Below are positions 9,395-62,785 of a stretch of DNA of 64,000 nucleotides, piece after piece. The notes below the pieces were generated by a model. It was not told the origin of the DNA and did not search any database. It saw only the letters and a program-made list of their open reading frames with translations. Positions within the stretch are counted from its first letter, which is position 1; each line of letters begins with the position of its first letter. Location of the stretch: the NCBI GenBank assembly GCA_041658125.1, contig JBBAAS010000003.1, positions 10,830-74,829 on the forward strand, written 5' to 3'. Made by a program: the position numbers and the translations under genes. This DNA comes from Candidatus Shapirobacteria bacterium. GTDB taxonomy: Bacteria > Patescibacteriota > Microgenomatia > UBA12405.

Positions 9395-11146
9395 GTGTCC
9401 AAATCCCTCCGGGTCATCTTGCTCTCCTTATTCTTTCTTTTTATATTCCTCCCATGCCTGCCCCCGGGGGGTCAAGGGGAGGTGTCCCGGTTATTGGGAC
9501 GGAGGGGTTTTGTCTTTGCCAAAACCATCGACGAAGAAATCGCCGACGTCGTCAAACAGATCAGTGATCTTGAAAAGGCTATGGCTCCCCTTAAAACCGA
9601 GTCCAAAGATCTTCAAAGTAAAATCACTCTGGCCAAAATACAAATTGCCTCCACCGAAAAACAGATCGTCAATCTCGGCCAACTTTTGATCGACAAAGAA
9701 GCTGATCTTGAAGTTCAAAAAATTCTTTTGGGCGAACGTGTCCGTCGCTACTATATCAATAGTAAAAAATTTGATCCTTATTTAGTCTTTTTTTCCAACA
9801 GTCAAAATTCCAGCCTTATTCAGGAATATTCCTGGTATCAATCGATCATCGCCCGCGACCGCAACACCATTTCCCAATATGTTACCGATATTACTAATTT
9901 AAATCTCAACAAAACCAAGCTTGAAGTCGAAAAAGTTAAGCTGGCCGCTCTCAAGAAAAATTTTGAAAATCGTTTTGGTTTTCTGGCTACCGAAATCAAA
10001 AAAGCCGAAAATTATAAAAATATTCTTTCCGCCAAACAGCAGTCTCTTATTGCCGAAAAAACCGCCATGTTCAACACTTCCGTCGGTGACGTTTCCACTT
10101 CTGACGATCCCGCCTCCCGTGCCGATTACAACCCCGGTTTCTCTCCCGCCTTTGCCGCTTTCTCTTTTGGCGCACCTCACCGCAAAGGCATGTCCCAATT
10201 TGGCGCTTTTGGCCGCTCCAAAGCCGGTCAGAATTACGAAACTATTCTTCGTGCTTATTACGGCGATATTAAAATTGAAAAAATTAATACCGATGGTTCG
10301 ATCAAAACCACTATCGGTAGTTTGCCTTTTGAAAGCAATTATCTAGTCGGTATTGCCGAAATGCCGGCCGGTTGGGGCGATCAGGGCGGTTACGAAGCGC
10401 TCAAAGCCCAGGCTATTGCCGCCCGCACTTACGCTCTTAACTCTACCGGCAATCTTTCCGGTACTATTTGTGTTACCGAAGCCTGTCAGGTTTATAAAAA
10501 ATCCCGCTTTGAATCACCCGGTCGGTGGAAACAGGCCGTCGAGGATACCCGCGGCATGGTTATCAAAAGTAATAAAACCGGCAATATTTTTTCCACTATG
10601 TATGCCTCCACTGCCGGTGGTGCTACTTATGGCTATTCTTCCGCCGATCACTCTACTCCCCAGCTTTGGGACACCACCTGCGGCAATCAGGGTTGCTGGC
10701 CCAATGACTCCTATGAAAAACAGGCTGGTTCGTCTTGGTATTACAAAGGTTGGTACAAAACCCGTAGCAATGCCGCCTACGGTCGTTCTCACCCGTGGCT
10801 CACCAACGATGAGTTTTCCGACATTATCAACGCTGTTTTATATTTTTCCAATAGTAACGACTCTTCCCATCTTTCCCAAATTCAAAATTGTATCGGTTCC
10901 TGTGACTCCAATGCCTGGTCCCGCGACGAGCTTCGTCGGCAGGTAGGAGACAAAGGTGGTCCGGTCTCTTCCGTCAATTCGATCTCCGTCGATTATTCCA
11001 CCGGCGGTTATACTCAAAAAGTCCGCGTCTCCACCGACAAAGGCGATTTTAGTTTTGATGGCGGTGCCTTCAAAGACATCTTCACCCTTCGTTCTCCCGG
11101 CGCGATTACCCTCAAATCAAGTTTATTTAACATAGAAAAAAAATAA
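9395..11146 (+). CDS. SpoIID/LytB-domain protein with an N-terminal signal peptide and coiled-coil
   Basis: EALKAQAIAARTYAL is the SpoIID/LytB signature, and the N-terminal half is coiled-coil-like. An in-frame GC-rich repeat encodes PCLPPGGQGEVSR. Confidence 0.65.
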   Translation: MSKSLRVILLSLFFLFIFLPCLPPGGQGEVSRLLGRRGFVFAKTIDEEIADVVKQISDLEKAMAPLKTESKDLQSKITLAKIQIASTEKQIVNLGQLLIDKEADLEVQKILLGERVRRYYINSKKFDPYLVFFSNSQNSSLIQEYSWYQSIIARDRNTISQYVTDITNLNLNKTKLEVEKVKLAALKKNFENRFGFLATEIKKAENYKNILSAKQQSLIAEKTAMFNTSVGDVSTSDDPASRADYNPGFSPAFAAFSFGAPHRKGMSQFGAFGRSKAGQNYETILRAYYGDIKIEKINTDGSIKTTIGSLPFESNYLVGIAEMPAGWGDQGGYEALKAQAIAARTYALNSTGNLSGTICVTEACQVYKKSRFESPGRWKQAVEDTRGMVIKSNKTGNIFSTMYASTAGGATYGYSSADHSTPQLWDTTCGNQGCWPNDSYEKQAGSSWYYKGWYKTRSNAAYGRSHPWLTNDEFSDIINAVLYFSNSNDSSHLSQIQNCIGSCDSNAWSRDELRRQVGDKGGPVSSVNSISVDYSTGGYTQKVRVSTDKGDFSFDGGAFKDIFTLRSPGAITLKSSLFNIEKK

Positions 11147-11152
11147 CCATAT

Positions 11153-11653
11153 ATGAAAAATATTATTGGTCACAAAGTTATTCTTAAACCGTTAAGTTCC
11201 AAAAATCGGATACAAATTGATCAATGGAATCAAGATCCGCTAGTTTCCCAATTTCGCGAAATTGGTACTAAGCCTAAATCAAAAAATATTAATTTGGCGA
11301 TATTTGACCTTTCTTCCAATAAATTAATTGGTGATGTCGGTATTAATTCTATTGATTTGGTTAATCACCATGCCGAAATCGGCTTAGCCATTGGCGACAA
11401 GAACTACTGGGGTAAAGGTTATGGCACTGATGTTATCAAAACTGCTTTGGATTATTGTTTTGATCAATTAAAACTAAATAAGGTTTATCTTGATGTTTGG
11501 CAGGAAAACCAAAAAGCCATTAATTGTTATCTCAAATGTGGTTTTAAGCAGGACGGTATTTTAAGACAACATGTAAAAAATAAAGATGGTTACCATGACA
11601 AATTAGTTATGAGTATTCTAAAATCCGAGCATATTAATATCGAAAAAAAATAA
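11153..11653 (+). CDS. GNAT family N-acetyltransferase (RimJ/RimL-like)
   Basis: LAIGDKNYWGKGYGTDVIKTALDYCFDQLKLNKVYLDVWQENQKAINCYLKCGF is an acetyl-CoA binding motif A/B pattern. Confidence 0.7.
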   Translation: MKNIIGHKVILKPLSSKNRIQIDQWNQDPLVSQFREIGTKPKSKNINLAIFDLSSNKLIGDVGINSIDLVNHHAEIGLAIGDKNYWGKGYGTDVIKTALDYCFDQLKLNKVYLDVWQENQKAINCYLKCGFKQDGILRQHVKNKDGYHDKLVMSILKSEHINIEKK

Positions 11654-12090
11654 TGAAAATTTTATTAAAAAATTTAATACGGTCTTCGTTTATTTGTTTT
11701 CTAATTGCCGCCATTATTGAATTATTTTGGCAGTATTTACTTAATCAAGAAACCAAAAACGGAGGTGAAATCAGTATTTTTTCCAGGTTTCTAATTCCTG
11801 GTTTTTTTCTAGCTTATTGGCTTTTTTTCTGGCCTCTAATCCAAACTTTCTTGATGATCCGTTTCTACGGTTTTAAAAGTTTAGTTATCCGTTTATTTAC
11901 CTATATTCTTTTGTCGGTATCGATGCCTATGGGTTGGGCTGGTTTTTTCGGAATTTTCAAATTTTTTACCGGCGAGTCTAGCACGAATATCACTCTTGCC
12001 TCTGAGTTTGGCATGTATTTGTCCATTTTATTCACTCAGTTCGCTCTCTTTTTTTTGTTTGTCAAAGATAGTCATATCGAAAAAAAGTGA
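11653..12090 (+). CDS. hypothetical integral membrane protein
   Basis: Four predicted TM helices; no family recognised. Confidence 0.4.
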   Translation: MKILLKNLIRSSFICFLIAAIIELFWQYLLNQETKNGGEISIFSRFLIPGFFLAYWLFFWPLIQTFLMIRFYGFKSLVIRLFTYILLSVSMPMGWAGFFGIFKFFTGESSTNITLASEFGMYLSILFTQFALFFLFVKDSHIEKK

Positions 12091-12644
12091 TCCTTATTTA
12101 TGCCTTTTCCAATCCTTGGGGTACCAACATTTCCCGCCGTGTCCTCCTCGAACTTCAAAAACAATTAAGTCTCCCTTTCCTCAAAGGGAGAAGCCCCGAT
12201 GAGACTTTAGTCGACATCGGGAAGAGGGATTTTGCCCTAATTCACGGTCACCCCCGCCCATTCTTCCAAACTCATATTGAACACAAAATTTACTCAATTA
12301 TCATCGGCCTTGGTGATGGCTCCAAATTTATCTCCAAAATCAAAATCGAAACCCGCGCCAAAAATGTCTATTTAGACAAAGAAATTTATCCCTTTTCTCC
12401 GATATTTCTCGATCTTAACCTTCCCGTTGTCGACAACTTTGATTCGGATTATTTCCAAATCGGCTCCAATATGGGTACCTACAACTGCAACTACATGGCC
12501 TATCAAACCCAGCTTCACCTCAATCAAAAAAGTCCGCAAACTAAGCATTTATTTCTCCATCTTCCCCAAAAATCCAACGCTACCGATCTAGCCTCTCGAA
12601 TTCTTTGCCTTTTTCAAGACAATCAAGTATTGAATAAACCGTAA
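12087..12644 (+). CDS. hypothetical protein carrying an in-frame repeat copy
   Basis: GTG start overlaps the previous stop. Contains a short palindromic repeat that encodes QLSLPFLKGRSP. Confidence 0.4.
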   Translation: MILIYAFSNPWGTNISRRVLLELQKQLSLPFLKGRSPDETLVDIGKRDFALIHGHPRPFFQTHIEHKIYSIIIGLGDGSKFISKIKIETRAKNVYLDKEIYPFSPIFLDLNLPVVDNFDSDYFQIGSNMGTYNCNYMAYQTQLHLNQKSPQTKHLFLHLPQKSNATDLASRILCLFQDNQVLNKP

Positions 12645-12649
12645 ATTAC

Positions 12650-12678
12650 TTGAAAATAGCCTAAAATTGTTATATAAT
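12650..12678 (+). promoter_or_regulatory. sigma-70-type promoter: TTGAAA, 17 nt spacer, TATAAT
   Basis: TTGAAA at 12650-12655 and TATAAT at 12673-12678, just upstream of the ATG at 12686. Confidence 0.45.
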
Positions 12679-12685
12679 ATATTAT

Positions 12686-13165: not shown

Positions 13166-13198
13166 TAATTGTTCTCGCCTTTTTGTTAAAATACTCCT

Positions 13199-29876: not shown

Positions 29877-29910
29877 AAACTCATAATAACATACCTCCTC
29901 CCAAGCTTAG

Positions 29911-41953: not shown

Positions 41954-42134
41954 AGACTTTCTAACGATAAGAGTATTATATCCCAGTATTTTTCAATACT
42001 AATGGTAATTAAATTGTTCGTCTTTCCATATAAATTTTTTGTTTTCCGACCGAGCTTCTTATAGAGATCTATTCCTCTACGCTGAAAATTTTTCCTCCCT
42101 TTACTTTCCCTCCCAAATTGTGTAATTTTAACCA

Positions 42135-43735: not shown

Positions 43736-44407
43736 TTAGTAAGTCTTGGTGTAACAATTCACCGCTTTGGTAAAGCCGGCCTTGACTGCTTCTTTTTCTG
43801 AACAAAACCATTGATCGCCCTGATCAAGCTCCAAAGCCACATTACTATAGTTGCCGCAACCGGAAAAAAAGTAAGTTTTTTTACCTTCACGGACATTGCC
43901 CTTGATATCGCACTTGGAACTATCGGGATTAGTCTTCTGATAACACTTCGGGCTAAAAACACCCAAGTTATCGACTTTTGCCGATTGAAAGGCCGCCTTT
44001 AATTTTTCCGATTCGATTGAAGCGGTTGATGTAAATCGCGCCCAGCCGGACAGAATCATTTGCTCATTTATTAATTGGTCATCAACATAAACCAAAGCCA
44101 AAAACCGGCCAAAGTGGTCATTAAGCTCACCAACAAGCCGGACTTTTTTCCCGGTTAGAAGACGGGTAAGTAAGGCCGTCGCCTCATCGGCTCCGCACAA
44201 ACCCTCTTCAGGCGCATTAACACTCATTAATCTAATTTGCCGGCCATCATCAACAATAAAAGTATCGCCATCTATAATTCTTTGGACTGAGTATTGGGTC
44301 GGGGCAGGGGTCTTGGTCTTAATCAGAAATATACCTAAAAGCAAATTAAAAATAATTGACAAGGTCAAAAATATTTTAGTCAATAAAAGTAGTTTATACT
44401 TAATCAA
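43736..44407 (-). CDS. secreted thermonuclease (SNase-like)
   Basis: VQRIIDGDTFIVDDGRQIRLMSVNAPE is the staphylococcal nuclease motif; N-terminal TM or signal segment. Confidence 0.7.
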   Translation of the reverse strand: MIKYKLLLLTKIFLTLSIIFNLLLGIFLIKTKTPAPTQYSVQRIIDGDTFIVDDGRQIRLMSVNAPEEGLCGADEATALLTRLLTGKKVRLVGELNDHFGRFLALVYVDDQLINEQMILSGWARFTSTASIESEKLKAAFQSAKVDNLGVFSPKCYQKTNPDSSKCDIKGNVREGKKTYFFSGCGNYSNVALELDQGDQWFCSEKEAVKAGFTKAVNCYTKTY

Positions 44408-46176
44408 TGCACTTTACCTGTCGGACCTTTATCGGCAAACATAGCCCTCAAAGTTGGTCCCAATATTGGGAAAAGGAGGATTCTCTTTTTGGCCTTATCA
44501 ATCTCACTTCCGACGATCCGGCTTCCGATCTTGTCGCTCTTGGTCATTCCCTGATTGATAAAATTAACCAGGCTTTTTCTGTTTCTACTCTTTCGGAAAT
44601 TCTTTCTCAAATTACCTCCGAATATCAAGCTTCCGCCGTCAAAATCAATCTTTCTTTGGTTACCATTTCTGACAATCAGCTTACTTTACTGAATCTTGGC
44701 CAAAATCAGGCTTATCTTCGCCGCGGTCTTCGGATTGCCCCGCTTCTTTCTGCCTCACCCGCTGTTCCCATTACCGGCCAGCTGGCCGCAAACGACCAAA
44801 TTTTTCTTACCACGGAACCTTTTTTTGACGGTTTTGGTTTCGACCGGATCAAGCAGTTTCTTTCCCTTGGCAGTCTTCAGGACATCGAAGAAAATTTTCT
44901 TACCTATCTCAATACATTGGATGTTCAGGACAATCTTGCCGCCGTTTTGATCCAAGCCGAATCCGATGACACCGGTAGTACTTTATTTTCTCCTCTTCCG
45001 GTTTCCGCCCCGCCCCCTCCCGGGGGGCCAAAAGTTTCTCTTTTTTCCCAAATTTCCAAAGCTTTTCCCCGCCGGCAGTCGCTTTATGTTTCTTCCCAGG
45101 ACTTAAACCAAACCAAGCGCCACAAACAGCAAAACGTCATTTTGGCCCTTATTCTTCTTCTGGCTCTTGGCGTCAGTTCCTTTTTTGGTTATCAAAAAAA
45201 TCGTGCCTCCGCTATCGAATCCAAGTACCAAACCATAAAATCGGCTCTTCAGGAAAAATTGACAAATGCCCAAACTGTTAAAAATCTGGATCTTGAATCT
45301 GCCCAAAATTTGGCCAAAGAAGCCCAAGTTCTGCTCAAAGACCTCTCGGCTTTGAAAGTTCATCCTGATGAAGTTTCTGGTTTTGAGTCCCAAATCTCCA
45401 CTTTTCTTTCTCAAACCGGCTCCAAAAGTGACTTTCTCCCCGAAGTTTTTTATGATACCGGTATGATAAAAAATGGTCCGAAATTTAACCATATATTTTA
45501 TTCTAATAAAAATATATTTCTCTTTGACCCGGGGGATGGTCGCCTCACCAGCCTTGATGAAAACCGGAAAATCGACACTATTTCCTCCGCCGACGGACTA
45601 AAAAACCTCCAATTTATCAGTCTCAACAATGGTAAATTTTATGGCGTTTTGGATCAAAAAGTTTTTCTCATTACCAAAACCTCTTTGGATCCGGTTATCG
45701 AGCTTGCTGTTGATCCGGTTAGTCTTCAGTCATGGAATCAGGCCTTTTATCTTTTAAGCTCCGATGCTATTACCAAATTTGCTCCCAATTCTACCGGCTT
45801 TTCCAAAGGCACCCCTTGGCTTCAGGACGGCCAGTCGCTCCCCCAAAACCCCTCTTCTTTGGCCATTAACGGTCAGCTTTGGGTTCTTTCGGCAAATGGT
45901 CAAATTACTGCCTACGATCGCGGTCAAAAGGCCGTTTTTAAACCAAGCCAGCTCGTTGATACCACTGGCGCCAAGAATTTGGTTACTACTGAAAATAGCC
46001 AAATTTTGGCCTTTAACGATTCCCAAAATCAGGTTTATGTCTATCAAAAAAATGGCACCATGCTCGCCAAGTACAATTTCAATACCCTTTCTGTTCTAAG
46101 TCTGGCTCTGAACGTTGACAAAAACCTCCTCTACGTCCTTTGCTCCGACCAAAAGATCTACAAAATTTCTCTCTAG
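44407..46176 (+). CDS. hypothetical protein, carries an in-frame repeat fragment
   Basis: 589 aa with a central TM helix and a Ser/Asn-rich beta-rich C-terminus. ccgccccgccccctcccggggggcc at 45006-45035 encodes SAPPPPGGP. Confidence 0.45.
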   Translation: MHFTCRTFIGKHSPQSWSQYWEKEDSLFGLINLTSDDPASDLVALGHSLIDKINQAFSVSTLSEILSQITSEYQASAVKINLSLVTISDNQLTLLNLGQNQAYLRRGLRIAPLLSASPAVPITGQLAANDQIFLTTEPFFDGFGFDRIKQFLSLGSLQDIEENFLTYLNTLDVQDNLAAVLIQAESDDTGSTLFSPLPVSAPPPPGGPKVSLFSQISKAFPRRQSLYVSSQDLNQTKRHKQQNVILALILLLALGVSSFFGYQKNRASAIESKYQTIKSALQEKLTNAQTVKNLDLESAQNLAKEAQVLLKDLSALKVHPDEVSGFESQISTFLSQTGSKSDFLPEVFYDTGMIKNGPKFNHIFYSNKNIFLFDPGDGRLTSLDENRKIDTISSADGLKNLQFISLNNGKFYGVLDQKVFLITKTSLDPVIELAVDPVSLQSWNQAFYLLSSDAITKFAPNSTGFSKGTPWLQDGQSLPQNPSSLAINGQLWVLSANGQITAYDRGQKAVFKPSQLVDTTGAKNLVTTENSQILAFNDSQNQVYVYQKNGTMLAKYNFNTLSVLSLALNVDKNLLYVLCSDQKIYKISL

Positions 46177-46247
46177 TCTCCCTTTCTTCAAAGGGAGAAG
46201 CGGCAACTTGTCCCGATCGAAGTATCGGGAAGCCGAGAGGGATTTTA
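46177..46247 (+). repeat. family-1 palindromic repeat (hairpin CTCCCTTTcttcAAAGGGAG plus CCCGATcgaagtATCGGG)
   Basis: gtctccctttcttcaaagggagaagcggcaacttgtcccgatcgaagtatcgggaag...gggatttt, upstream of smpB. Confidence 0.6.
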
Positions 46248-46689: not shown

Positions 46690-46757
46690 CCCCTGCCCTG
46701 CTTGCCCCTGGGGGGCTTGCCCCTTTGGGGTCAAGGGAAGGGGTAGGGGAAGGGTTT
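46690..46757 (+). repeat. family-1 palindromic repeat (type B)
   Basis: cccctgccctgcttgcccctggggggcttgcccctttggggtcaagggaaggggtaggggaagggttt. Confidence 0.65.
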
Positions 46758-46763
46758 AACAGA

Positions 46764-47206
46764 GGAGATGCCCACTAACGAAGCGGGGTCCAAAGTTGAC
46801 TGAAAAAGACGTCTACAAGCTTAAGATAATTTTCTCCTACACTCTCACTGGCTAAAATTAACAAAAGGCAGTGAAATGCCGATTGGTGAGGGCATTACCC
46901 CTCGCTTGTCTTTTTAGAAAATCGGGATCCTAAAAATAGCATTTCGGTTTAGTTAACACTGATTAATCTTCTCCGAAATAGGGGACTAATCAATGACTAG
47001 CGGCTTACGCCAAAGCGTAAACGGCTTGGCTGGCGGGTTGACTTGCGAAAACCGAACCAGTTACTTCACGAGCCTGATTAAGGGCTGTTCGAAGAGCATT
47101 ACCAATTTTGTTGGCATTATATTTTTGGTCCTTGTTTAGCGACTCTAGAACCAAAGTCGGCTTGCAGTCTTTTAAGGTACAAACTCTGTCGATTCAATTC
47201 ATCTCC
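46764..47206 (-). ncRNA. ssrA: candidate tmRNA (ssrA); boundaries are tentative
   Basis: On the minus strand the 5' end is GGAGAUG-AAUUGAAUCGACAGAG (tmRNA-like D-analog), and the 3' end is GGAC-CCCGC-UUCGUUA-GUGGG-CAUCUCC (T-arm plus a 7-bp acceptor complementary to the 5' end). An internal reading frame ends ...ASQAVYALA-UAA. Adjacent to smpB. Confidence 0.4.
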
Positions 47207-48381: not shown

Positions 48382-48456
48382 GTAGGGAACGGTTTAAAAT
48401 CGTTCCCCGGGTAGGGGCGTATTGCAATACGCCCCTACAAAAAGGTAGGGTGGGTT
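48382..48456 (+). repeat. double-hairpin GC-rich repeat variant (GGGAACGgtttaaaatCGTTCCC plus GTAGGGGCGTATTGCAATACGCCCCTAC)
   Basis: Two perfect palindromes followed by GGTAGGGTGGGTTT. It shares GGAACG and GTTTAAAA with family 2 and GTAGGG..GGGTTT with family 1. Confidence 0.55.
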
Positions 48457-48468
48457 TAATATTAATCT

Positions 48469-49160: not shown

Positions 49161-49212
49161 CCTCCCCTGCCCTGTCAGGGGAAGGGGTAGGGGAAGGGTT
49201 TGGATTTAGACG
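49161..49212 (+). repeat. family-1 palindromic repeat (type B, short)
   Basis: cctcccctgccctgtcaggggaaggggtaggggaagggtttggattt. Confidence 0.6.
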
Positions 49213-50620: not shown

Positions 50621-50662
50621 GCTCCTCCTTTCGTCAAAGGAGGAGTTAGAGGTAGATTTTGC
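50621..50662 (+). repeat. family-1 palindromic repeat (type A)
   Basis: gCTCCTCCTTTCGTCAAAGGAGGAGttagaggtagattttg. Confidence 0.65.
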
Positions 50663-54393: not shown

Positions 54394-55488
54394 TTAATCT
54401 AACTCCCAGCGGGGAAGTCTATCCAGTTTTTCAATCTCTTCCACAAACTCTCCTCTCATTGCCTTGTAATACCCCGCCACTCCGATCATCGCCGCGTTAT
54501 CGGTATTTAGCCATTTTTTCGCCGGCATATAAATCGGCAGTTTCATTTCTTTTGCCAATTTTCTTAATCTTTTTCTCAAAGTCATATTCGCCAGTACTCC
54601 GCCCGAGGCCAGCAATGTTTTTGGTTGATATTTTTCTATCGCCAGTTTAAATTTTCTTGTCAAATGCTCAAAGACCGCCTCCTGAAAACTGGCCGCCAAA
54701 TCAGCCAAATGCTCGTTCACTTTTTCTTTCGGCCAGTCTTTTATTTTGTAATAAAAACTGGTCTTAAGTCCGGAAAAACTAAAATCCATTATTTTTTTAT
54801 CTTGGAGTGGTTTTGGCAATTCTAAAAATTTAGGGTCGCCTTTCATGGCCACTCTTTCAATCACCGGTCCTCCCGGATATCCCAATCCTAATAATTTTGC
54901 CGCCTTATCCAGTGCCTCTCCCGCTGCGTCATCCAGCGTCTCGCCGACCGTTTCATACTCTCCAATCTTTTTTATTATTACTATTTTAGAATGACCACCT
55001 GATACAGTTAGCGCTAGTGCTGGAAAGCCTATTTCCCTACTTGGTAAATTGTTCTTATTCTTTACCCAATTAGATAAAATATGTCCCTCAATATGGTTAA
55101 CAGCAACAAGTCTTTTATTATACTTCTTGGCCAACTCTTTGGCCATGTTTACTCCCACTCCCAGCGCCGGTGCCAACCCCGGTCCCACCGTCACCGCGAT
55201 CACATCTATGTCTCTTATCATTTCTTTTATCTCCCTTGCCCTGCTTGCCCCTGTGGGGTCAAGGGAAAGGGTAGGGTTAGGGTTTTGTTTTTTTGCTCTT
55301 TTCAGCGCTTCCATTATCACCGGTCCGATTCTTTCCTGATGAGCGCGTTTAGCAATATCCGGTACCACTCCGCCCCATTTTTTATGCAGGTCTATCTGTG
55401 ACGAAATCACCGACGACAATACTCTGTCGTCCTCCAGCACCGCCGCACAAGTGTCGTCACAACTGGTTTCTATCGCCAATATTTTCAT
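54394..55488 (-). CDS. tsaD: tRNA N6-adenosine threonylcarbamoyltransferase TsaD (Kae1/Gcp)
   Basis: MKILAIETSCDDTCAAVL and VTVGPGLAPALGVGVNMAKELA, plus a C-terminal metal site. Contains an in-frame repeat encoding KQNPNPTLSLDPTGASRAR. Confidence 0.85.
   Translation of the reverse strand: MKILAIETSCDDTCAAVLEDDRVLSSVISSQIDLHKKWGGVVPDIAKRAHQERIGPVIMEALKRAKKQNPNPTLSLDPTGASRAREIKEMIRDIDVIAVTVGPGLAPALGVGVNMAKELAKKYNKRLVAVNHIEGHILSNWVKNKNNLPSREIGFPALALTVSGGHSKIVIIKKIGEYETVGETLDDAAGEALDKAAKLLGLGYPGGPVIERVAMKGDPKFLELPKPLQDKKIMDFSFSGLKTSFYYKIKDWPKEKVNEHLADLAASFQEAVFEHLTRKFKLAIEKYQPKTLLASGGVLANMTLRKRLRKLAKEMKLPIYMPAKKWLNTDNAAMIGVAGYYKAMRGEFVEEIEKLDRLPRWELD
55230..55287 (+). repeat. family-1 repeat (type B) inserted in-frame in tsaD
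   Basis: tctcccttgccctgcttgcccctgtggggtcaagggaaagggtagggttagggttttg. Confidence 0.7.
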
Positions 55489-55500: not shown

Positions 55501-55556
55501 CTCCCCTCCTTTCCTCAAAGGAGGGGTCAGGGGGTAGATTTTGACGGGAAGGGTTT
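55501..55556 (+). repeat. family-1 repeat (type A) in the tsaD/HIT divergent intergenic region
   Basis: CTCCCCTCCTTTCCTCAAAGGAGGGGtcagggggtagattttgacgggaagggttt, followed by TATAAT 7 nt before the HIT ATG. Confidence 0.7.
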
Positions 55557-55568
55557 ATAATTACTCAT

Positions 55569-56217: not shown

Positions 56218-57396
56218 CTAGATTTCGTAACTTATCTTTCTTGTCGTCTCATCCACATATTCAAATTTCACCATTACCGTCTTAGCCATTTCTTTTAATT
56301 TTTCCAAATTTTCTTTTCCCATATTTTCCGGCCATTCAATACAAGCAATGGTCTTTGGACTAAATTGCTCCCAAAATTTTATTTCTTTAAATTCAAATTG
56401 GTTTTCAATTCTATACAAATCAAAATGCAAAAATTTATTTATTGCGTAAGTCTCCCTTGCTTGCCCCTGTGGGGCTTGCCCCTTTGGGGTCAAAGGGAGA
56501 TTTAGAGGGATTTCATATTCATTCATCACCACAAACGTTGGGCTGGTTATTCTTTCTCTTATCCCCAAAGCTTTTCCCACCGCTCTGGCAAATACTGTTT
56601 TTCCGCACCCCAAATCCCCAGTCAATAAAAAAATTATTGGTTTAAAGATAAAGTCTCCCTTGCTTGCCCCTGAGGGGCTTGCCCCTGTGGGGTCAAAGGG
56701 AGATTTAGAGGGATTTTGATTGAGGGTTTTTTTTAATATAAACCCCGCCACCTTTCCCGTTTCTTTTTCCGATTTTGATATCAGGCTCTTGGTTCCGCTG
56801 GTTATCAAGTCTCCTCTTCTTAATACTTTCAATTCCGGTTCGGTGGTATCAATTACAGTTGACGGTAAATTCTTCGGCAGTTTGCCCGCATCTACCACCA
56901 TGTCAATCATCTCCGTTTTCTTTTTCGACAATGTTTTCAAAAAACTCCCGATCGAATAATGCGGTGTTTTCCCCGATAAATTAGCCGACGTTGCCGTTAC
57001 CGGTCCGCCAACTGCCAATACTAAATCTTTTATATTTTTATTCTCCGGGATTCTTATCCCGAGTGTTCCGTTTTCTGCCTCTATGCCTTTGGCTACTTTA
57101 TGTTTTCCTTGGCTTATGACGGTAAATGGTCCGGGTAACAAATTTGCATAAACATTTTTTCCATTTTCCGATAGTTTCACATATTCCTCCGCCATATTTT
57201 GGTCTAAAACCGCAATCGATATTGCCTTCCCGTGCCATCTGTTTTTAAACAAAAGTAGTTTCTCTACCGCCGATTGATTAGTCGGATCAACCATCAGTCC
57301 GTACACCGTGTCGCTGGGGAACACCACTAATCCGCCTTCTCTTATTACTTTGGCCGCTAAATCTATTGATTTTTGACTCAATTTTACAATTTTCAT
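56218..57396 (-). CDS. tsaC-tsaE: fused TsaC/Sua5 (YrdC domain) and TsaE (YjeE P-loop) t6A biosynthesis protein
   Basis: N-terminal VVFPSDTVYGL...IRIPEN (YrdC). C-terminal LLTGDLGCGKT, SPTF and HFDLYR (TsaE). Two in-frame repeats encode SKSPFDPTGASPSGASKGD and LNLPLTPKGQAPQGQARE. Confidence 0.7.
   Translation of the reverse strand: MKIVKLSQKSIDLAAKVIREGGLVVFPSDTVYGLMVDPTNQSAVEKLLLFKNRWHGKAISIAVLDQNMAEEYVKLSENGKNVYANLLPGPFTVISQGKHKVAKGIEAENGTLGIRIPENKNIKDLVLAVGGPVTATSANLSGKTPHYSIGSFLKTLSKKKTEMIDMVVDAGKLPKNLPSTVIDTTEPELKVLRRGDLITSGTKSLISKSEKETGKVAGFILKKTLNQNPSKSPFDPTGASPSGASKGDFIFKPIIFLLTGDLGCGKTVFARAVGKALGIRERITSPTFVVMNEYEIPLNLPLTPKGQAPQGQARETYAINKFLHFDLYRIENQFEFKEIKFWEQFSPKTIACIEWPENMGKENLEKLKEMAKTVMVKFEYVDETTRKISYEI
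56450..56514 (+). repeat. family-1 repeat (type B) in-frame in the TsaE part
   Basis: agtctcccttgcttgcccctgtggggcttgcccctttggggtcaaagggagatttagagggatttc. Confidence 0.7.
56652..56718 (+). repeat. family-1 repeat (type B) in-frame at the TsaC-TsaE linker
   Basis: agtctcccttgcttgcccctgaggggcttgcccctgtggggtcaaagggagatttagagggattttg. Confidence 0.7.
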
Positions 57397-57426: not shown

Positions 57427-57575
57427 GCCCTCCTTTCGTCAAAGGAGGGTGCCCGAAGGGCGGGTGGATTTTGCTTTCATCCCTCCTTTTTCAAGGGAGG
57501 GTAGGGTGGGTTTTGATAAGTCTCCCTTGCCTGTCCGCCTCTGCAGGATCAAAGGGAGATTTAGAGGGATTTCGG
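57427..57575 (+). repeat. three tandem family-1 repeat units (A, A' and B) between tsaC-tsaE and valS
   Basis: gCCCTCCTTTCGTCAAAGGAGGGtgcccgaagggcgggtggattttg; CCCTCCTTTTTCAAGGGAGGGtagggtgggttttg; tctcccttgcctgtccgcctctgcaggatcaaagggagatttagagggatttcg. A TATAAT follows 9 nt before the valS ATG. Confidence 0.7.
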
Positions 57576-57588
57576 TTATAATATTCCC

Positions 57589-59913
57589 ATGGACAAGGCA
57601 TACGAGCCTTCTGGCGAAGAACATATTTACAAGCTTTGGGAAGACTCCGGTATTTTCACTCCCAAAATCGACCCTAAAAAACAGCCTTTCTCTATCATTT
57701 TGCCTCTCCCTAATGCCAACGACCCGATGCACATCGGTCATGCTCTTTTTACCATTCAGGATATTCTGATCCGTTACCACCGCATGCTTGGCGAGTCTAC
57801 TCTTTGGCTTCCCGGCTCCGATCACGCTGGTATTGAAACTCAATACGTTTTTGAAAAAAAACTAGCCAAGGAGGACAAGTCCCGCTTTGATTTTGACCGC
57901 GATACTCTCTACAAAATGATCTGGGATTTTGTCGAAGAAAATCGCGAGCTTAACGTTGCTCAAATGCGCAAGCTTGGTTTTTCTATGGATTGGACCCGCT
58001 ATCACTATAGCCTCGAACCCAAAATTATCGACAATGTTTTGGCTACTTTCAAAAAGCTTTATCACGACGGTCTAATTTATCGGGCTGAAAAAATTGTCAA
58101 TTACTGCACTCACTGCGGCACGGCTTTTTCCAATCTTGAAGTTGATTATGTCGATGAAGTTACTAGCCTCTACTACATGAAATATGGTCCGTTTACTTTG
58201 GCTACCACCCGTCCCGAAACCAAGTTTGGCGACACCGCCGTAGCCGTTAATCCCAAAGACATTCGCTACCAGCAGTATGTTGGCCAGGACATTACTGTCG
58301 ACGGTCTCCTTGGCCCCTTTAAGGTCCGGGTTATTGCCGACGATATGGTTGATATGGAGTTTGGTACCGGTGTCGTCAAAATCACTCCCGCCCACGACCC
58401 CGACGATTTTGAAGCCGGTCTTCGTCACCATTTGCTCATCAAACGCGTTATTGGTTTTGATGGCCGACTCAACGAATTAACCGGTAAATATGCCGGCCTG
58501 ACTGTTGCTCAAGCTCGGATTAAAGTGGTTGAGGATATGAAGGCAAGTGGTATGCTTGTCAAAATCGACGATAATTATAATCATCGCATTGGCCGTTGTT
58601 ACCGTTGTAAACATATTATCGAGCCCATGGTTATGCCCCAGTGGTTTGTCAAAATCGATGCTCTGGCCAAGCCCGCCCTCAAAGCCGCCCGCGATGGCCA
58701 AGTCAAGTTTTTCCCTCTCCGTTTCAAAAAAGAATTTACCGATTGGATGGAAAATATCCGCGACTGGAACATCAGTCGTCAAATTGTTTGGGGCCCCCGC
58801 ATTCCGGCTTGGTATTGTCTTGACTGTCATCCGGGCATCAAGCTCAATTTTTTAACCAAAGACAAAAAAGTCGTTACCGGTCTTTATGTCGATCTTAAGG
58901 ACAAATATTCTTTTGATGAAATCCGTTCCGGTCTTCAGTCCCTAAGCGCTCCTGTCGGCTCTATTTTTTATGTCGACTCGCCCGATTCCTGCCCCAAATG
59001 TCACTCCAAAAATCTTTTGCAGGAAACCGACACTTTCGACACCTGGTTTCTTAGCGGCCAGTGGCCCTTGTCTACTCTTGGTTACAATGTTGCCGATCCT
59101 ACCAAAAGCTCTCCCGATTTCGCCTATTTTTACCCCACTTCCGTCATGGATACTCTTTGGGACATTCTCTTCTTTTGGGTTGCCCGGATGATGATGTTTG
59201 GTCTTTATTTAACCAAAGAAGTTCCGTTTAAAACTATTCACCTTCACGCTCGGGTGGTCGATAAAAACGGTCAGAAAATGAGCAAATCCAAGGCCAATGT
59301 TGTCGATCCGCTCTCCATGACTGCCAAATACGGCACCGACGCTCTTCGTTTTTCCCTTGTTTACGGCATTGCTCCCGCTTCCGATATCGTCGTTTCCGAG
59401 GACAAAATCCGCGCCCACCGCAATTTCGTCAACAAAATCTGGAACGCCGCCCGTTTTATCGAAATGCTTATCGAACGTCAGCAAGAAAAGTCTCCCTTGC
59501 TTGCCCCTGTGGGGTCAAAGGGAGATTTAGAGGGATTTAAGGATCTCAAAGGCAAGGGGGATTTGGATCCCGCCGACTTGGCCATTCTCCAAAAGCTCAA
59601 CTCTCTCATCACCTCTACTACCAAAAACCTCAACACTTTTCATTTCGGTCAGGCTTCCGAAGATTTGTACCAATTCTTCTGGCACGAATTTTGTGATGTT
59701 TATATCGAATCCACCAAAAATAGGCCAGCTCAAAACGAGGGGGGAGTCGATGCTCTTCCCGTTCTTGTCCATATTTTGTTAACCTCTCTTAAGCTTCTTC
59801 ACCCTTTTATTCCCTTTGTTACCGAAACTATTTATCAAAACTTAAAAGCTCAGCTCGGCTGGACCGATCCATTCTTAGCCGCCGCCCCCTGGCCGACTGT
59901 AAATGAAATATAA
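57589..59913 (+). CDS. valS: valyl-tRNA synthetase, short form lacking the C-terminal coiled-coil
   Basis: PNANDPMHIGHA (HIGH), GSDHAGIETQ, and KMSKSKANVVDP (KMSKS). Collinear with ValRS blocks. An in-frame repeat encodes SPLLAPVGSKGDLEGF. Confidence 0.8.
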   Translation: MDKAYEPSGEEHIYKLWEDSGIFTPKIDPKKQPFSIILPLPNANDPMHIGHALFTIQDILIRYHRMLGESTLWLPGSDHAGIETQYVFEKKLAKEDKSRFDFDRDTLYKMIWDFVEENRELNVAQMRKLGFSMDWTRYHYSLEPKIIDNVLATFKKLYHDGLIYRAEKIVNYCTHCGTAFSNLEVDYVDEVTSLYYMKYGPFTLATTRPETKFGDTAVAVNPKDIRYQQYVGQDITVDGLLGPFKVRVIADDMVDMEFGTGVVKITPAHDPDDFEAGLRHHLLIKRVIGFDGRLNELTGKYAGLTVAQARIKVVEDMKASGMLVKIDDNYNHRIGRCYRCKHIIEPMVMPQWFVKIDALAKPALKAARDGQVKFFPLRFKKEFTDWMENIRDWNISRQIVWGPRIPAWYCLDCHPGIKLNFLTKDKKVVTGLYVDLKDKYSFDEIRSGLQSLSAPVGSIFYVDSPDSCPKCHSKNLLQETDTFDTWFLSGQWPLSTLGYNVADPTKSSPDFAYFYPTSVMDTLWDILFFWVARMMMFGLYLTKEVPFKTIHLHARVVDKNGQKMSKSKANVVDPLSMTAKYGTDALRFSLVYGIAPASDIVVSEDKIRAHRNFVNKIWNAARFIEMLIERQQEKSPLLAPVGSKGDLEGFKDLKGKGDLDPADLAILQKLNSLITSTTKNLNTFHFGQASEDLYQFFWHEFCDVYIESTKNRPAQNEGGVDALPVLVHILLTSLKLLHPFIPFVTETIYQNLKAQLGWTDPFLAAAPWPTVNEI
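59489..59538 (+). repeat. family-1 repeat (type B, single inner hairpin) in-frame in valS
   Basis: agtctcccttgcttgcccctgtggggtcaaagggagatttagagggattt. Confidence 0.7.
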
Positions 59914-60271
59914 AAAATTGATTATTGGCTTGTTATTAATCTCTCTTTTTATTAATCTCTATCTTTCTTTTCTTGCTCTTAATCCTATCTCTCAAGCCAA
60001 AATTAAATCCGTTCTTTCGTTGTCTTCCGGCACCCGCTATTTTTACTCGCTTGAGGCTGACCGTTTGGCACACTACCCGGAAACCATTAAAAAAACCCTC
60101 AATTCTCTTATTGTTAAAAGTCCCAAAACCCCCGATGATTGGATTGAAATTACTAAAATTTATTTACAATTAAACAACCCAACCGAAGCTAAAAAGGCTA
60201 TCTTACAGGCTCAAAAACTCGACCTGATCCGCTCCGACATTGAAAAAATCTATTTTAATCTCAATCGCTGA
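59903..60271 (+). CDS. hypothetical TM-anchored protein (TPR-like)
   Basis: 122 aa with an N-terminal TM helix; overlaps the valS stop. Confidence 0.35.
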   Translation: MKYKKLIIGLLLISLFINLYLSFLALNPISQAKIKSVLSLSSGTRYFYSLEADRLAHYPETIKKTLNSLIVKSPKTPDDWIEITKIYLQLNNPTEAKKAILQAQKLDLIRSDIEKIYFNLNR

Positions 60272-60970: not shown

Positions 60971-61074
60971 TTTTATTTTTTTGCCTGCTGGGCCTTTAGC
61001 TTTCGCCTACCTCCCCTCGGCTCTTATAATTTGTGAAGGAATTATACACTATTCTTTCTTTTTTTATATCTTTA

Positions 61075-61114
61075 CCCCTCCTTTCGTCAAAGGAGGGGTA
61101 GGGGTAGATTTTGA
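61075..61114 (+). repeat. family-1 repeat (type A) upstream of trpS
   Basis: CCCCTCCTTTCGTCAAAGGAGGGGtaggggtagattttga. Confidence 0.7.
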
Positions 61115-61135
61115 TGTTACAATTTAGTCAATCTT

Positions 61136-62146: not shown

Positions 62147-62149
62147 AGA

Positions 62150-62225
62150 CAGGTGGATTTTGATTTACCCCTGCCCTGTCAAGGGAAGGGGTAGGGGAAG
62201 GGTTTGAAGGGTTGGTGGATTTTTC
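62150..62225 (+). repeat. family-1 repeat (type B) downstream of trpS
   Basis: ggtggattttgatttacccctgccctgtcaagggaaggggtaggggaagggtttgaagggttggtggatttt. Confidence 0.65.
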
Positions 62226-62489
62226 TTAAAACGGAAACTTTTCCAGGTTTATATACGTTCCGATTGCATTTCCGGCCGAATAAGCCACAATAATCAAAAA
62301 ATCACTTCCTCTGATGTTGTTTACGATTTGAAAAATAATCCAAAAAGCAATCAGGCTCTCAAAAAATACTAAGAGGGCCGCAGCGATAGACTTTCCCTTT
62401 GAAATCCAATAAGTTCTTTGGGTGGCCAAAAACATTTCCAAAAAGCCGACCCCAAAGTATCCAGCGACTTTTAGTACCTCGTTGATCAT
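62226..62489 (-). CDS. small membrane protein (hypothetical)
   Basis: 87 aa with two TM helices. Confidence 0.3.
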   Translation of the reverse strand: MINEVLKVAGYFGVGFLEMFLATQRTYWISKGKSIAAALLVFFESLIAFWIIFQIVNNIRGSDFLIIVAYSAGNAIGTYINLEKFPF

Positions 62490-62665
62490 ATGCTTTTTGT
62501 AAATTTTTAACCTTATTTTCCCCGCCAGGTTCTGACAAAGGATCGACTACTTCTTGTTTCATTTTTATCTTCAGGTTCCCCCAAGACCCCTAATTATACC
62601 ACAATTATAGGATAAAATCATCATCTCTTGTCTCAGAATACCAGCCTGTCTTTCCGTTTAATCTG

Positions 62666-62739
62666 TGGGCATGCATGGATTCGGACCATGGACCACCGAC
62701 TTATAAGATCGGTGCTCTAACCAACTGAGCTACATGCCC
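62666..62739 (-). tRNA. tRNA-Ile (anticodon UAU)
   Basis: Minus-strand GGGCATG-TA-GCTCAGTTGGTTAGAGC-A-CCGAT-CTTATAA-GTCGG-TGGTC-CATGG-TCCGAAT-CCATG-CATGCCC-A. Anticodon TAT; no encoded CCA. Confidence 0.75.
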
Positions 62740-62748
62740 ATTTTCTTT

Positions 62749-62785
62749 CCCTCCTTTTTCAAGGGAGGGATTAAGGGTGGGTTTG
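62749..62785 (+). repeat. family-1 repeat (type A) between two tRNA genes
   Basis: CCCTCCTTTTTCAAGGGAGGGattaagggtgggtttg. Confidence 0.65.

Follow-up and report, generated by a model that had tools for sequence, protein, structure and literature searches.

What are the short, hairpin-forming repeats that recur throughout this stretch of 64,000 nucleotides (the window) on a CPR contig from Candidatus Shapirobacteria? The initial annotation described one modular family with intergenic and in-frame copies, combining simple and nested hairpin types with a conserved 3' tail, and all of these are present. Our analysis confirmed that the family exists and showed that it had been under-counted; the window contains 17 complete copies and one chimeric copy. 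Twelve of the 13 places originally listed carry the repeat as described; the thirteenth, 45006-45035, was rejected as a member because it lacks the pyrimidine, purine and mirror arms defined below, and its DNA fold z-score is -0.87. Four full copies were missing from that list, at 55230-55287 (TsaD), 56448-56515 and 56651-56718 (both Sua5-TsaE) and 59488-59540 (ValRS), while the supposed fragments in the SpoIID-like gene and in the ORF starting at 12087 turned out to be complete elements. The copy at 48382-48458 is a chimera.

Three-arm architecture of the elements

Each element reads, 5' to 3' on one strand, as a pyrimidine arm (Y), a loop, a homopurine arm (R) that is Watson-Crick complementary to Y, a second loop and a third arm (RH) in mirror image to R, and it closes with TTT(T)G. 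The mirror rule holds in the RH of every copy, G standing opposite G and either A or T opposite A. The "conserved 3' tail" mirrors the purine arm, a relation that the initial annotation had not noticed and that accounts for the modular build. The window's copies are listed below.

9448-9512, +, full element, in frame and sense in the SpoIID-like gene (9395-11146), aa 19-40; Y CCTCCCATG, R AAGGGGAGG, RH GGAGGGGTT; hairpins in both loops
12167-12234, +, full element, in frame and sense in the Pcp-like ORF (12087-12644), aa 28-50; R AAAGGGAGAAG, RH GAAGAGGGATT; loop 2 is a 27-nt hairpin
46175-46247, +, intergenic, between the ORF 44407-46176 and smpB; R AAAGGGAGAA, RH GAGAGGGATT; a nested hairpin of 35 nt forms loop 2
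46690-46758, +, intergenic, between smpB (+) and the tmRNA gene (-); R AAGGGAAGGGG, RH GGGGAAGGGTT; two GC hairpins inside loop 1
48382-48458, +, chimeric copy: two unrelated hairpins, then an orphan third-arm tail, GGTAGGGTGGGTTTA; its part at 48411-48438 is a REP-like hairpin, GTAGGGGCGTATTGCAATACGCCCCTAC
49164-49202, +, between convergent genes; R AGGGGAAGGG, RH GGGAAGGGTT; both loops short
50622-50661, +, between two - strand genes, TIM and solute-binding protein; R AAAGGAGGAG, RH GAGGTAGATT
55230-55287, +, full element, antisense in TsaD (54394-55488, -), aa 68-86 (QNPNPTLSLDPTGASRARE); R AAGGGAAAGGG, RH GGGTTAGGGTT
55503-55543, +, intergenic, between divergent TsaD and HIT; adjoined by an orphan third-arm module, ACGGGAAGGGTTTA (55544-55557), whose final base starts the HIT -10 box
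56448-56515, +, full element, antisense in the TsaE part of Sua5-TsaE (56218-57396, -), aa 293-316
56651-56718, +, full element, antisense in the Sua5-TsaE linker, aa 226-248
57427-57473, 57480-57515 and 57518-57574, +, tandem trio, each member of a different subtype, lying between the -10 boxes of the divergent genes Sua5-TsaE and valS
59488-59540, +, full element, in frame and sense in ValRS (57589-59913), aa 634-652 (KSPLLAPVGSKGDLEGFKD)
61075-61113, +, between divergent L25 and trpS; Y CCCCTCCTTT, R AAAGGAGGGG, RH GGGGTAGATT
62168-62206, +, intergenic, between convergent trpS and the DUF5698 gene; with an orphan third-arm module on either side, CAGGTGGATTTTG (62150-62162) and AAGGGTTGGTGGATTTTT (62207-62224)
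62748-62785, +, between tRNA-Ile and tRNA-Met, both on -; R AAGGGAGGGA, RH AGGGTGGGTT

Complete copies span 36-73 nt and reach a density of about one per 1.3 kb across 44-63 kb of the window. A repeat search sorted the copies into families D1-D4, and four copies share 85-100% identity over 41 nt. The type A hairpin, CCCTCCTTTCGTCAAAGGAGGG, gave 4 matches at ≤3 mismatches versus 0 in 100 shuffles. A finder for the three-arm (class II) order Y-R-RH recovered all 17 complete copies and returned 18 + strand hits, compared with a mean of 0.33 per window (maximum 4) in 100 composition-matched simulations. The family thus greatly exceeds what chance would produce.

Over the 17 copies, with arms of 9-11 nt in each, Watson-Crick Y/R pairs occupy 148 of 166 positions and the third arm is compatible at 161 of 166 (88 G·G, 33 A·A and 40 T·A), two mismatches occurring in some Y arms. 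There are seven distinct R arms, each with its own mirror RH, and Y, R and RH covary between subtypes and between genomes, so the similarity is not low-complexity GC bias alone. DNA folding left RH unpaired in every copy and turned the long loops into hairpins; small GC hairpins can occupy either loop, and 10 of the 17 copies have a loop of 12-35 nt. Such loops exceed those by which intrastrand-triplex motifs are defined, 1-6 nt (ITxF) or 0-10 nt (Hoyne), and together with the Y-arm mismatches they count against a triplex.

Alternatively, an intramolecular G-quadruplex might form from the G tracts in the purine arm and tail, and subtype B (46690, 49164 and 62168), with the form GGG(G)AAGGGGTAGGGGAAGGG, does have four G runs of ≥3. 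Yet the commonest subtype, AAAGGGAGA...AGAGGGATTT, offers just two G3 runs and several others fall short of the number needed, and a quadruplex would leave the conserved pyrimidine arm, the mirror A/T positions and the A-to-T rule unexplained. We therefore regard this explanation as highly improbable. Internal A-to-T changes in RH, such as GGGTGGG and GGGTTAGGG, fit reverse-Hoogsteen T·A-T triads on the element strand, and not a pyrimidine-motif fold on the complement.

Copies inside genes and turnover in relatives

Six of the 17 complete copies lie within ORFs, translated in frame within five genes, and they are read in sense in valS and the SpoIID-like and Pcp-like genes and in antisense in TsaD and Sua5-TsaE. 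The SpoIID-like insert directly follows the N-terminal hydrophobic helix. In the predicted structure of ValRS, the insert lies in a loop of low confidence, bounded by helices 604-634 and 661-682; its segment is the sole long one to drop under a pLDDT of 50. In-gene copies may persist only as in-frame, stop-free inserts in tolerant loops or linkers.

Comparison with relatives revealed that copies come and go between related species, orthologous sites being empty or differently filled. The TsaD orthologue of L006 is without the aa 68-86 insertion. In Sua5-TsaE, L127 carries the 56448-56515 element minus the two nested loop hairpins and is 10 aa shorter, and the 56651-56718 element is missing from the L004 and L006 orthologues, L127 having a different element at that position. 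Other Shapirobacteria ValRS proteins are insert-free or have different element types at the same site. Likewise, the orthologous Sua5-valS spacer is empty in L006 (47 nt) and holds one element in L004, and the hairpin of 48411-48438 recurs upstream of valS in L127.

The initial annotation had favoured regulation at the RNA level, through promoter capture for leaderless genes, sequestration of an SD-like AAGGAGG, terminators or processed small RNAs. Several intergenic copies do stop 10-60 nt upstream of + strand starts, the hairpins fold stably, type A includes AAAGGAGG, and a TATAAT after two of the copies stands 6-9 nt ahead of the HIT and valS ATG, compatible with leaderless transcripts. However, of the 67 gene starts in the window, about 27 are closely preceded by a TATAAT-like hexamer, with or without a neighbouring repeat, start-adjacent TATAAT being a genome-wide feature, and the repeat-free L006 spacer retains both divergent -10 boxes. 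Consensus promoter and terminator scans of 44-64 kb were near background, and the T run lies 12-16 nt away from the hairpin. Promoter capture is not borne out. Nor is SD sequestration, as SD-like motifs precede only about 4 of 67 starts and AAGGAGG occurs in one subtype only, where it follows from the homopurine arm. Moreover, copies lie in both senses relative to transcription, also within ORFs, and the mirror-image third arm is inexplicable by Watson-Crick RNA pairing. BoxC/PIT, a related motif discussed below, showed no promoter or terminator activity, and RNA is reported not to form purine-motif triplexes (PMC4666352). We consider an RNA-level role quite improbable. The in-gene copies in both senses, the divergent, convergent and tandem gene contexts of the intergenic copies and the absence of any match in an Rfam search rather suggest that the constraint acts on DNA, not RNA.

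Strand polarity and occurrence in other genomes

All 17 complete copies found by the window scan lie on the + strand; the - strand has no copy. Third-codon GC skew ranges from -0.3 to -0.6 where the copies lie, for genes of both strands, and every copy occupies the C-rich strand whatever the gene direction. In a pattern-based census of 12 other Shapirobacteria genomes, the purine and C-rich strands coincided in 24 of 25 occurrences, the lone exception being a 241-nt locus, a length at which skew is not meaningful. At strong-skew loci the query type split 38:7 and other types 28:7, and polarity is broken on one Parcubacteria contig (L010/L062). ORF orientation was uninformative for leading/lagging assignment (168 vs 164), and the C-rich strand carries the 16S gene; our assignment is based on the leading strand being usually G-rich. 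Homopurine triplex-forming strands on the lagging-strand template are known to cause fork stalling and to undergo deletion, and fork stalling at H-DNA-type repeats depends on which strand templates lagging synthesis, a dependence that would explain the polarity of the elements. The one-way orientation may then reflect replication, the folding strand being retained in the leading-strand template and avoided in the lagging-strand one.

The family is not restricted to the window. One subtype pattern matched at least 117 stretches, spread over 83 or more species-representative genomes of many phyla, with a chance expectation, by our own estimate, of <1 in 596 Gb. For other subtypes with asymmetric R, matched loci had an exact mirror-only RH in 49 cases versus a direct-repeat-only one in 2, across 25 distinct R/RH combinations among the matches listed. 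RH lay downstream in 190 cases and upstream in 3, again among the matches listed.

Strict polarity, high density and placement in both coding and non-coding DNA are also expected of DNA uptake or polar recognition sequences (DUS/USS-, KOPS- or Chi-like) that a host protein reads as duplex, and some tails contain GGGNAGGG-like octamers, which we take to resemble E. coli KOPS. This is the least probable of the explanations we weighed. The window has seven different sequences with the three-arm geometry alone in common; proteins recognize direct or inverted repeats rather than mirror ones; the G-rich leading strand is where KOPS and Chi are found, the C-rich strand where the window elements are; and the same motif in many unrelated phyla defeats self-recognition.

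A more serious alternative is a miniature element (REP/BIME- or MITE-like) mobilized by a transposase, for example a HUH/RAYT-type single-strand DNA transposase. The enzyme would recognize the folded Y-R-RH strand, with the mirror arm as recognition feature, and insert it strand-specifically into single-stranded fork DNA, so that polarity would come from insertion, not selection. This is compatible with a triplex-like fold and differs as to why the fold is conserved and why the copies are polar. Presence or absence at orthologous sites, different subtypes at the same sites, near-identical copies at four sites, mosaic elements, orphan modules and the recurrence in L127 of the REP-like GTAG hairpin all speak for it, as does the strict polarity, for which IS200/IS605 single-strand transposons, inserting with replication polarity, provide a precedent. 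However, the active strand of IS608-type elements comes to lie on the lagging-strand template, a placement opposite to that suggested by the skew here. The 40 window ORFs scanned contain no transposase, Y1/HUH or integrase domain, the sole nearby integrase being a XerC/D-like gene outside the window; terminal inverted repeats or target duplications were not evident at the filled and empty sites compared; a search of 2.9 million viral contigs gave one hit only; and the BoxC literature reports no link to mobile elements (PMC4666352). We thus hold mobilization by a transposase to be possible but rather unlikely, and our analysis found no partner protein or mechanism of spread for the elements.

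Proposed intrastrand triplex DNA and related systems

The explanation we favour, with a probability of about 0.6, is that the copies are short dispersed "potential intrastrand triplex" DNA repeats of the class II purine motif, selfish or neutral, acting at the DNA level and polar with respect to replication. In the single-stranded state, Y and R would form a hairpin and RH would fold back antiparallel to R in the major groove, giving G·G-C, A·A-T and T·A-T triads.

The closest known system is BoxC/PIT/TMECO, an intrastrand triplex motif that occurs in proteobacteria including E. coli (PMC4666352, Holder et al. 2015, NAR 43:10126, which also summarizes the BoxC/PIT work of Hoyne and Maher 2000). 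The single-strand triplex was demonstrated in vitro on the isolated strand of E. coli BoxC/TMECO, while in vivo DMS footprinting of TMECO did not detect it (PMC4666352). Both families are multi-copy and dispersed, share the order Y, loop, R, loop and G/A/T third arm, a similar size (35-40 nt for copies with short loops) and arms more conserved than loops, and have T in place of A at third-arm positions (GGGAGAGGG / GGGTGAGGG). They differ in arm sequence, in host, here CPR, and in the loops, which in the window reach 12-35 nt and fold on themselves. In addition, the window arms are asymmetric, unlike those of BoxC/TMECO, so mirror and direct repeats can be distinguished. The TMECO consensus does not occur in the window, and at two loci TMECO-pattern copies accompany the family described here. 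E. coli oriC lies near 3.92 Mb and ter near 1.59 Mb; with these positions, the single TMECO copies fall 8 leading versus 5 lagging, indicative of no polarity (our own calculation from PMC4666352 Table 1). TMECO is always intergenic without strand bias (PMC4666352), in contrast to the window elements.

Other systems share individual features. Rickettsia palindromic elements (RPEs) are also short structured repeats in frame in unrelated housekeeping genes, where the inserts add a peptide segment tolerated by the protein (PMC10969869), as in ValRS, TsaD, Sua5-TsaE and the SpoIID-like and Pcp-like genes here. Yet RPEs measure about 100-150 bp, occur in Rickettsia only and encode a conserved peptide, whereas the elements described here are shorter, read in either sense, defined by three-arm DNA geometry and found in many phyla. 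RAYT-mobilized REP/BIME repeats are likewise short GC-rich intergenic palindromes in mosaic tandem clusters, comparable to 57427-57574, and the module at 48411-48438 has a GTAG-headed hairpin; in the window, however, the palindrome is strictly pyrimidine/purine with a mirror third arm, there are no inverted pairs, copies also lie in ORFs and no RAYT was seen. H-DNA and homopurine mirror repeats such as (GAA)n share homopurine/homopyrimidine mirror symmetry and purine-motif triads, but are long simple tracts that fold from supercoiled duplex, while a single strand suffices for the compact three-arm elements.

Relative to BoxC, three aspects are new: the strict C-rich-strand orientation in Shapirobacteria; the presence of in-frame copies within essential genes, sense and antisense, at sites that are empty or differently filled in relatives; and the structured loops. 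In this uncultured CPR bacterium, the elements would be structured DNA of a selfish or neutral kind and not regulators of genes.

Three-arm architecture of the window repeats

The initial annotation described one repeat family in many copies, and an unbiased repeat search, which sorts the copies into families, bears this out. The window holds 17 complete copies plus one chimeric copy (48382-48458), including four that had not been listed (near 55230, 56448, 56651 and 59488). The type A hairpin described there likewise recurs, with four matches at no more than three mismatches against none in shuffled sequences. The segment 45006-45035, which had been counted as an in-frame member, drops out, as the family features are all absent and its fold is no better than that of shuffles (z = -0.87). 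Scanning for the TCA loop end, a purine arm and a complementary upstream arm recovered true copies on the + strand only. Two ENA assemblies and one Logan assembly carry DNA 100% identical to the window, and in these contigs (L001-L003) no copy was found in the 7-8 kb past the window end.

The "conserved 3' tail" described earlier is indeed present in each copy, but it has no single fixed sequence and instead mirrors the copy's own purine arm. Reading 5' to 3' on one strand, we denote the pyrimidine arm Y, the purine arm R and the third arm RH. RH is the mirror of the R arm of the same copy, with G opposite G and A or T opposite A, and is followed by TTT(T)G. Four arm pairs read:

R AAAGGGAGA, RH AGAGGGATT
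R AAAGGAGGG, RH GGGTGGATT
R AAGGGAAAGGG, RH GGGTTAGGGTT
R AAGGGGAGG, RH GGAGGGGTT

The block order is 5' pyrimidine-rich, purine-rich, reverse-Hoogsteen 3' in 17 of 17 copies. The arms are 9-11 nt long; over the 17 copies, Y and R form Watson-Crick pairs at 148 of 166 positions, and RH is compatible at 161 of 166 (88 G·G, 33 A·A and 40 T·A). Two mismatches in the Y arm occur in five copies, where the ITxF/Hoyne stem definition (6-15 nt) allows one at most; overall, the stems fit that definition. DNA folding with Watson-Crick pairs only gave the Y-R hairpin in every copy, with RH left unpaired. Both loops are at most 6 nt in 7 of 17 copies; the published limits of 1-6 nt (ITxF) and 0-10 nt (Hoyne) are exceeded in the ten copies with one self-folding loop of 12-35 nt, and the long loops are predicted by DNA folding to form small GC hairpins of their own. 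A three-arm finder recovered all 17 copies, giving 18 + strand matches against a mean of 0.33 and a maximum of 4 in composition-matched simulations. Across the window and the fetched loci, the mirror arm lies downstream in 190 cases versus upstream in 3. Judged by sequence, the arm order, pairing and triads of the window repeats satisfy the rules for a class II purine-motif intrastrand triplex.

Mirror rule, spread across genomes and known systems

One subtype served as the query pattern, CTCCCTT N2-32 CAAAGGGAGA N0-30 GAGGGATTT, for which our own estimate of the chance expectation is less than one match in 596 Gb. Among species-representative genomes it matched at least 117 stretches from at least 83 genomes, so that the family is not confined to the window. 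The positive genomes comprise Shapirobacteria, other Patescibacteria, Dehalococcoidia/Chloroflexi, low-GC "uncultured Gammaproteobacteria", Verrucomicrobia, Omnitrophota, Ignavibacteria, several Deltaproteobacteria-type groups and one Acinetobacter. Among the matches listed, loop 2 either reads TTTA/TTGA or forms a variable GC hairpin in which the changes compensate each other. The flanks of these loci hold many other subtypes (AAAGGGGGA, AAAGAGGGG, AAAGGAAGGGGG, GGAGAGGGGG), each owning a mirror arm on one side of the hairpin only.

A looser comparison of mirror and direct repeat, with the register set on G positions only, discriminated weakly (82% versus 73% A/T opposite A) and was replaced by an exact-match test because tandem copies and quasi-periodic arms confound it. 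Applied to asymmetric, non-query purine arms, the exact test compared arms that have a perfect mirror but no direct repeat in the 30 nt downstream with the reverse case, and returned 49 mirror-only against 2 direct-repeat-only arms (25 distinct arm pairs). Since these arms are asymmetric, a mirror can be distinguished from a direct repeat, which the near-symmetric E. coli motif does not permit. We know of no copying mechanism that yields a reversed sequence, and for that reason the three-arm geometry itself appears to be under selection. The internal A-to-T changes in RH fit reverse-Hoogsteen T·A-T triads on the folding strand and are at odds with a pyrimidine-motif fold on the complementary strand.

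Repeats with intrastrand triplex potential have reportedly been known since 2000, and to our knowledge no function, orientation rule or coding-region copies have been reported for the E. coli prototype. This nearest known system, BoxC (also PIT or TMECO), has the class II arm order, and its isolated strand forms a triple helix in vitro (PMC4666352). The TMECO consensus (CCCTCNCCC N3-6 GGGNGAGGG N3 GGGNGAGGG) has no match in the window and two in the fetched loci, one in a Dehalococcoidales MAG (L089, 7838-7872) and one in the sole viral contig with a CTCCCTT-type element (L126, 7004-7038). Phage carriage is unsupported, because the scan of viral contigs gave only one match. In contrast to TMECO/BoxC, which is always intergenic and strand-unbiased, 6 of the 17 window copies lie in ORFs and all 17 on one strand. 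With the consensus absent and the copies strand-biased and not exclusively intergenic, the window repeats were rejected as TMECO/BoxC proper.

Rickettsia palindromic elements (RPEs) invade ORFs in frame (PMC10969869), and the window repeats are likewise inserted in frame in ORFs and absent from orthologues (ValRS, TsaD, Sua5-TsaE). They differ from RPEs in size and host range, and are defined by their three-arm geometry. No transposase domain was found in the 40 window ORFs scanned. REP/BIME elements have GTAG 5' of an imperfect palindrome, inverted pairs and a RAYT gene, whereas the window copies are all co-oriented; this assignment was rejected, as there are no inverted pairs and a GTAG start occurs only in the chimeric hairpin at 48411-48438. 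No Y1 transposase was detected among the same 40 ORFs. G-quadruplex motifs were rejected as a family, as were intrinsic terminators, since the U run does not directly follow the GC hairpin.

The hairpin at 48411-48438 is a 28-nt GTAG-headed palindrome, GTAGGGGCGTATTGCAATACGCCCCTAC, with an identical copy upstream of valS in a relative's locus (L127). The two sites are non-orthologous and intergenic, and in both organisms a G-rich third-arm-like tail comes next. On its sequence, the palindrome is a REP-like module.

In the searchable literature, whose coverage is incomplete, searches for palindromic repeats of CPR bacteria or for Patescibacteria triplex motifs gave nothing specific, and we found neither coding copies nor replication polarity described for such elements, nor any account of them in CPR. 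Literal element sequences returned only primers and irrelevant matches.

Strand orientation

All 17 window copies lie on the + strand. Third-codon GC skew is -0.3 to -0.6 in genes of both strands at 1-14 kb and 44-64 kb, and as it is the same for genes on both strands, it is a property of the strand and not of coding. In a pattern-based census of 12 other Shapirobacteria genomes, the purine strand was the C-rich strand in 24 of 25 occurrences, the lone exception being a 241-nt locus too short for meaningful skew. The C-rich-strand rule also holds for low-GC "Gammaproteobacteria" MAGs and for most other Patescibacteria. A finder allowing one RH mismatch produced false matches opposite palindromic hairpins (6 in the window, 17 in the loci), and the exact finder was used instead for the orientation split. 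With this finder, at loci with an absolute skew above 0.1, query-type elements split 38:7 and other types 28:7, with one Parcubacteria contig supplying 4 of the 14 exceptions.

With respect to transcription, three genes carry copies in sense and two in antisense orientation, and the genes that flank intergenic copies are divergent, convergent or tandem. Given this mixed orientation, the polarity is a property of the DNA strand. For E. coli K-12, Table 1 of PMC4666352 gives 13 single TMECO copies; sorted by replichore on the positions of oriC and ter, they split into 8 leading and 5 lagging, so TMECO in E. coli is without polarity. Gene orientation gives no leading-strand signal (168 versus 164 ORFs), and the 16S gene is located on the C-rich strand. 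The leading strand is usually the G-rich one. Under this rule, the folding strand in Shapirobacteria would be the leading-strand template, which would be the placement with the least single-strand exposure of homopurine triplex-forming strands.

The RNA genes include:

6321-7797, + strand, 16S gene
46763-47206, - strand, tmRNA gene

There are also four tRNA genes in the window, one of them called tRNA-Ile with anticodon UAU (62665-62739). No 23S rRNA match was found anywhere in the window and opposite-strand ORFs directly follow the 16S gene, so the rRNA genes appear to be unlinked.

The block at about 15000-43500 has the opposite third-codon GC skew (+0.1 to +0.46, genes of both strands), a lower GC content (0.31-0.39) and polysaccharide-synthesis genes (glycosyltransferase, PseB-like and DegT-type), and no triplex-type element was found within it. 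Its features resemble those of a surface-polysaccharide island that was inverted or acquired. At 42094-42113 stands a pyrimidine mirror tract, CCTCCCTTT-AC-TTTCCCTCC, without a complementary purine arm, whose purine strand is the - strand, the C-rich strand of this block; it is an H-DNA-type mirror repeat and possibly a remnant element. A second, unrelated repeat family occupies spacers of the polysaccharide-gene region between 29910 and 34494 (near 29910, 30786, 31949, 32831 and 34426); its modules are GCTCGCYTSGYGCCTGCCCTGAGTTTRTCRAA, GGAACGATCCCCCAAANNGGACAGGTTTTAGAACT and GGCTTGCCTGCCNGCAGGCGGGTTTTA, and every copy lies on the + strand, upstream of gene starts.

Copies in genes, turnover and significance

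The window comes from an uncultured Candidatus Shapirobacteria bacterium (Patescibacteria/CPR), a name that the closest ValRS homologues, at 62-82% identity, also bear in NCBI records. The repeats sit among ordinary housekeeping genes. Their neighbours are:

smpB, TIM, solute-binding protein
RNase H, VanW-like protein
TsaD, HIT, Sua5-TsaE fusion
ValRS, L25, TrpRS

Six copies lie within five ORFs with the frame kept, and their intactness equals that of the intergenic copies. They encode:

SpoIID-like gene, aa 19-40
Pcp-like ORF, aa 28-50
TsaD, aa 68-86
Sua5-TsaE, aa 226-248 and aa 293-316
ValRS, aa 634-652

Comparison with relatives revealed both empty and differently filled sites. In L006, a relative's locus whose ValRS is 78-79% identical, the Sua5-valS spacer is 47 nt and element-free, with the two divergent -10 boxes in place; between the same -10 boxes stand three elements in the window and one in the relative L004. 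No target duplication or terminal repeats were visible between filled and empty Sua5-valS spacers. The TsaD insert is absent from L006, and the Sua5-TsaE linker insert from L004 and L006, while L127, the one useful relative from a metagenome scan with a Sua5-TsaE query, has a different element there. At the TsaE site, L127 has the same element minus the two nested loop hairpins and is exactly 10 codons shorter; loop hairpins are therefore gained or lost as modules. Homologues have at the ValRS site either no insert or other subtypes, encoding for instance PFLKGG..GGF, LPLFKGRNGEAERDL or SPLSKGELEGF. In an AlphaFold model of ValRS (mean pLDDT 85.7), two helices flank the insert, which falls in the one long stretch of low confidence (642-656). 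Thus the elements are gained, lost and replaced over species-divergence time. Four window copies are 85-100% identical over 41 nt, which suggests recent spread.

Other features were noticed in the same genes. The L004 TsaD orthologue (4897-6117, 406 aa) has two more in-frame inserts, not of the triplex type, reading ...KFQILRQGRTSLRFANKSQIANF... and ...IPSFPSKDGLRFASQFSKNKKINF... with the common motif LRFA(N/S), which suggests another ORF-invading repeat family in L004. A small ORF (59903-60271) overlaps the valS end by about 10 nt. Its position is conserved in all relatives (L004 12259-12654, L006 12279-12728, L007 3165-3635), with 122-156 aa in the window and relatives and no Pfam hit; it may be a split-off C-terminal domain, because the present ValRS falls about 100 aa short of the usual bacterial length. 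Upstream of valS in L007 (600-847) are three copies of a hairpin repeat, GATCCGCCTYTGGYGG...GAGATTTTTGATC, whose core resembles the loop hairpin CCGCCTCTGCAGG of the window copy 57518-57574 and of another fetched locus, L120.

The regulatory roles first proposed for the repeats fared less well. About 27 of 67 ORFs carry a TATAAT-like hexamer 5-9 nt ahead of their start codon, and -10 boxes also stand at the empty L006 site; such boxes are thus genome-typical, which argues against promoter capture by the repeats. The start-adjacent TATAAT behind the idea of leaderless transcripts does hold, but not its tie to the repeats: in this genome, leaderless or near-leaderless expression looks like a rule that is independent of them, and the gene starts suggest that mRNAs of the organism are mostly leaderless or have very short leaders. 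Sequestration of a Shine-Dalgarno sequence finds no footing either: AAGGAGG occurs in one subtype only, as a consequence of its homopurine arm, and SD-like motifs precede about 4 of 67 ORFs. Nor do the elements look like intrinsic terminators, since the third arm stands between hairpin and T run and most elements are not among the terminator-like sites, of which 44-64 kb contains 34 against 24.4 +/- 4.9 in shuffles. Terminator-like sites and consensus promoter matches in 44-64 kb were both close to shuffle level, and the T-rich tail was rejected as a -35 box, the hexamers at the right spacing (GGGAGA/GGTAGA) being unlike TTGACA. Rfam 15 matched no element at gathering scores and gave only chance-level matches at E up to 10. 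We have largely set aside the regulatory interpretation.

On the best-supported reading, these repeats would be a variant of intrastrand triplex-type DNA repeats that is widely distributed and CPR-rich. Single-stranded DNA would be the level at which the constraint acts, the orientation rule would be linked to replication, and protein loops would tolerate the elements in the manner of RPEs. A bolder proposal, which we regard as rather unlikely, is that the three-arm fold, far from a by-product, is the working part of a self-propagating DNA element of a kind not yet described, its triplex-like single-stranded structure being recognised or generated in copying; a structure-specific nuclease, a transposase or template switching at the fork would be candidate agents. 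If true, this would explain why Shapirobacteria and related CPR lineages show strict replication polarity, how the element spread over many phyla with geometry conserved and sequence free to vary, and why the same permissive loops in essential proteins have repeatedly gained new peptide segments.

For the intrastrand triplex-type repeats themselves, the asymmetric arms offer natural covariation evidence for selection on the three-arm geometry. Their all-or-none orientation relative to strand skew points to replication as the process that senses the structure, and with this rule the long-standing question of folding in vivo could be addressed by looking for orientation-dependent stalling or instability. 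CPR genomes are streamlined and their spacers tiny, and in-frame copies have been repeatedly tolerated there in essential proteins such as ValRS and the t6A synthesis enzymes; the elements thereby give rise to lineage-specific protein insertions, as well as to annotation and alignment artefacts in CPR proteomes.
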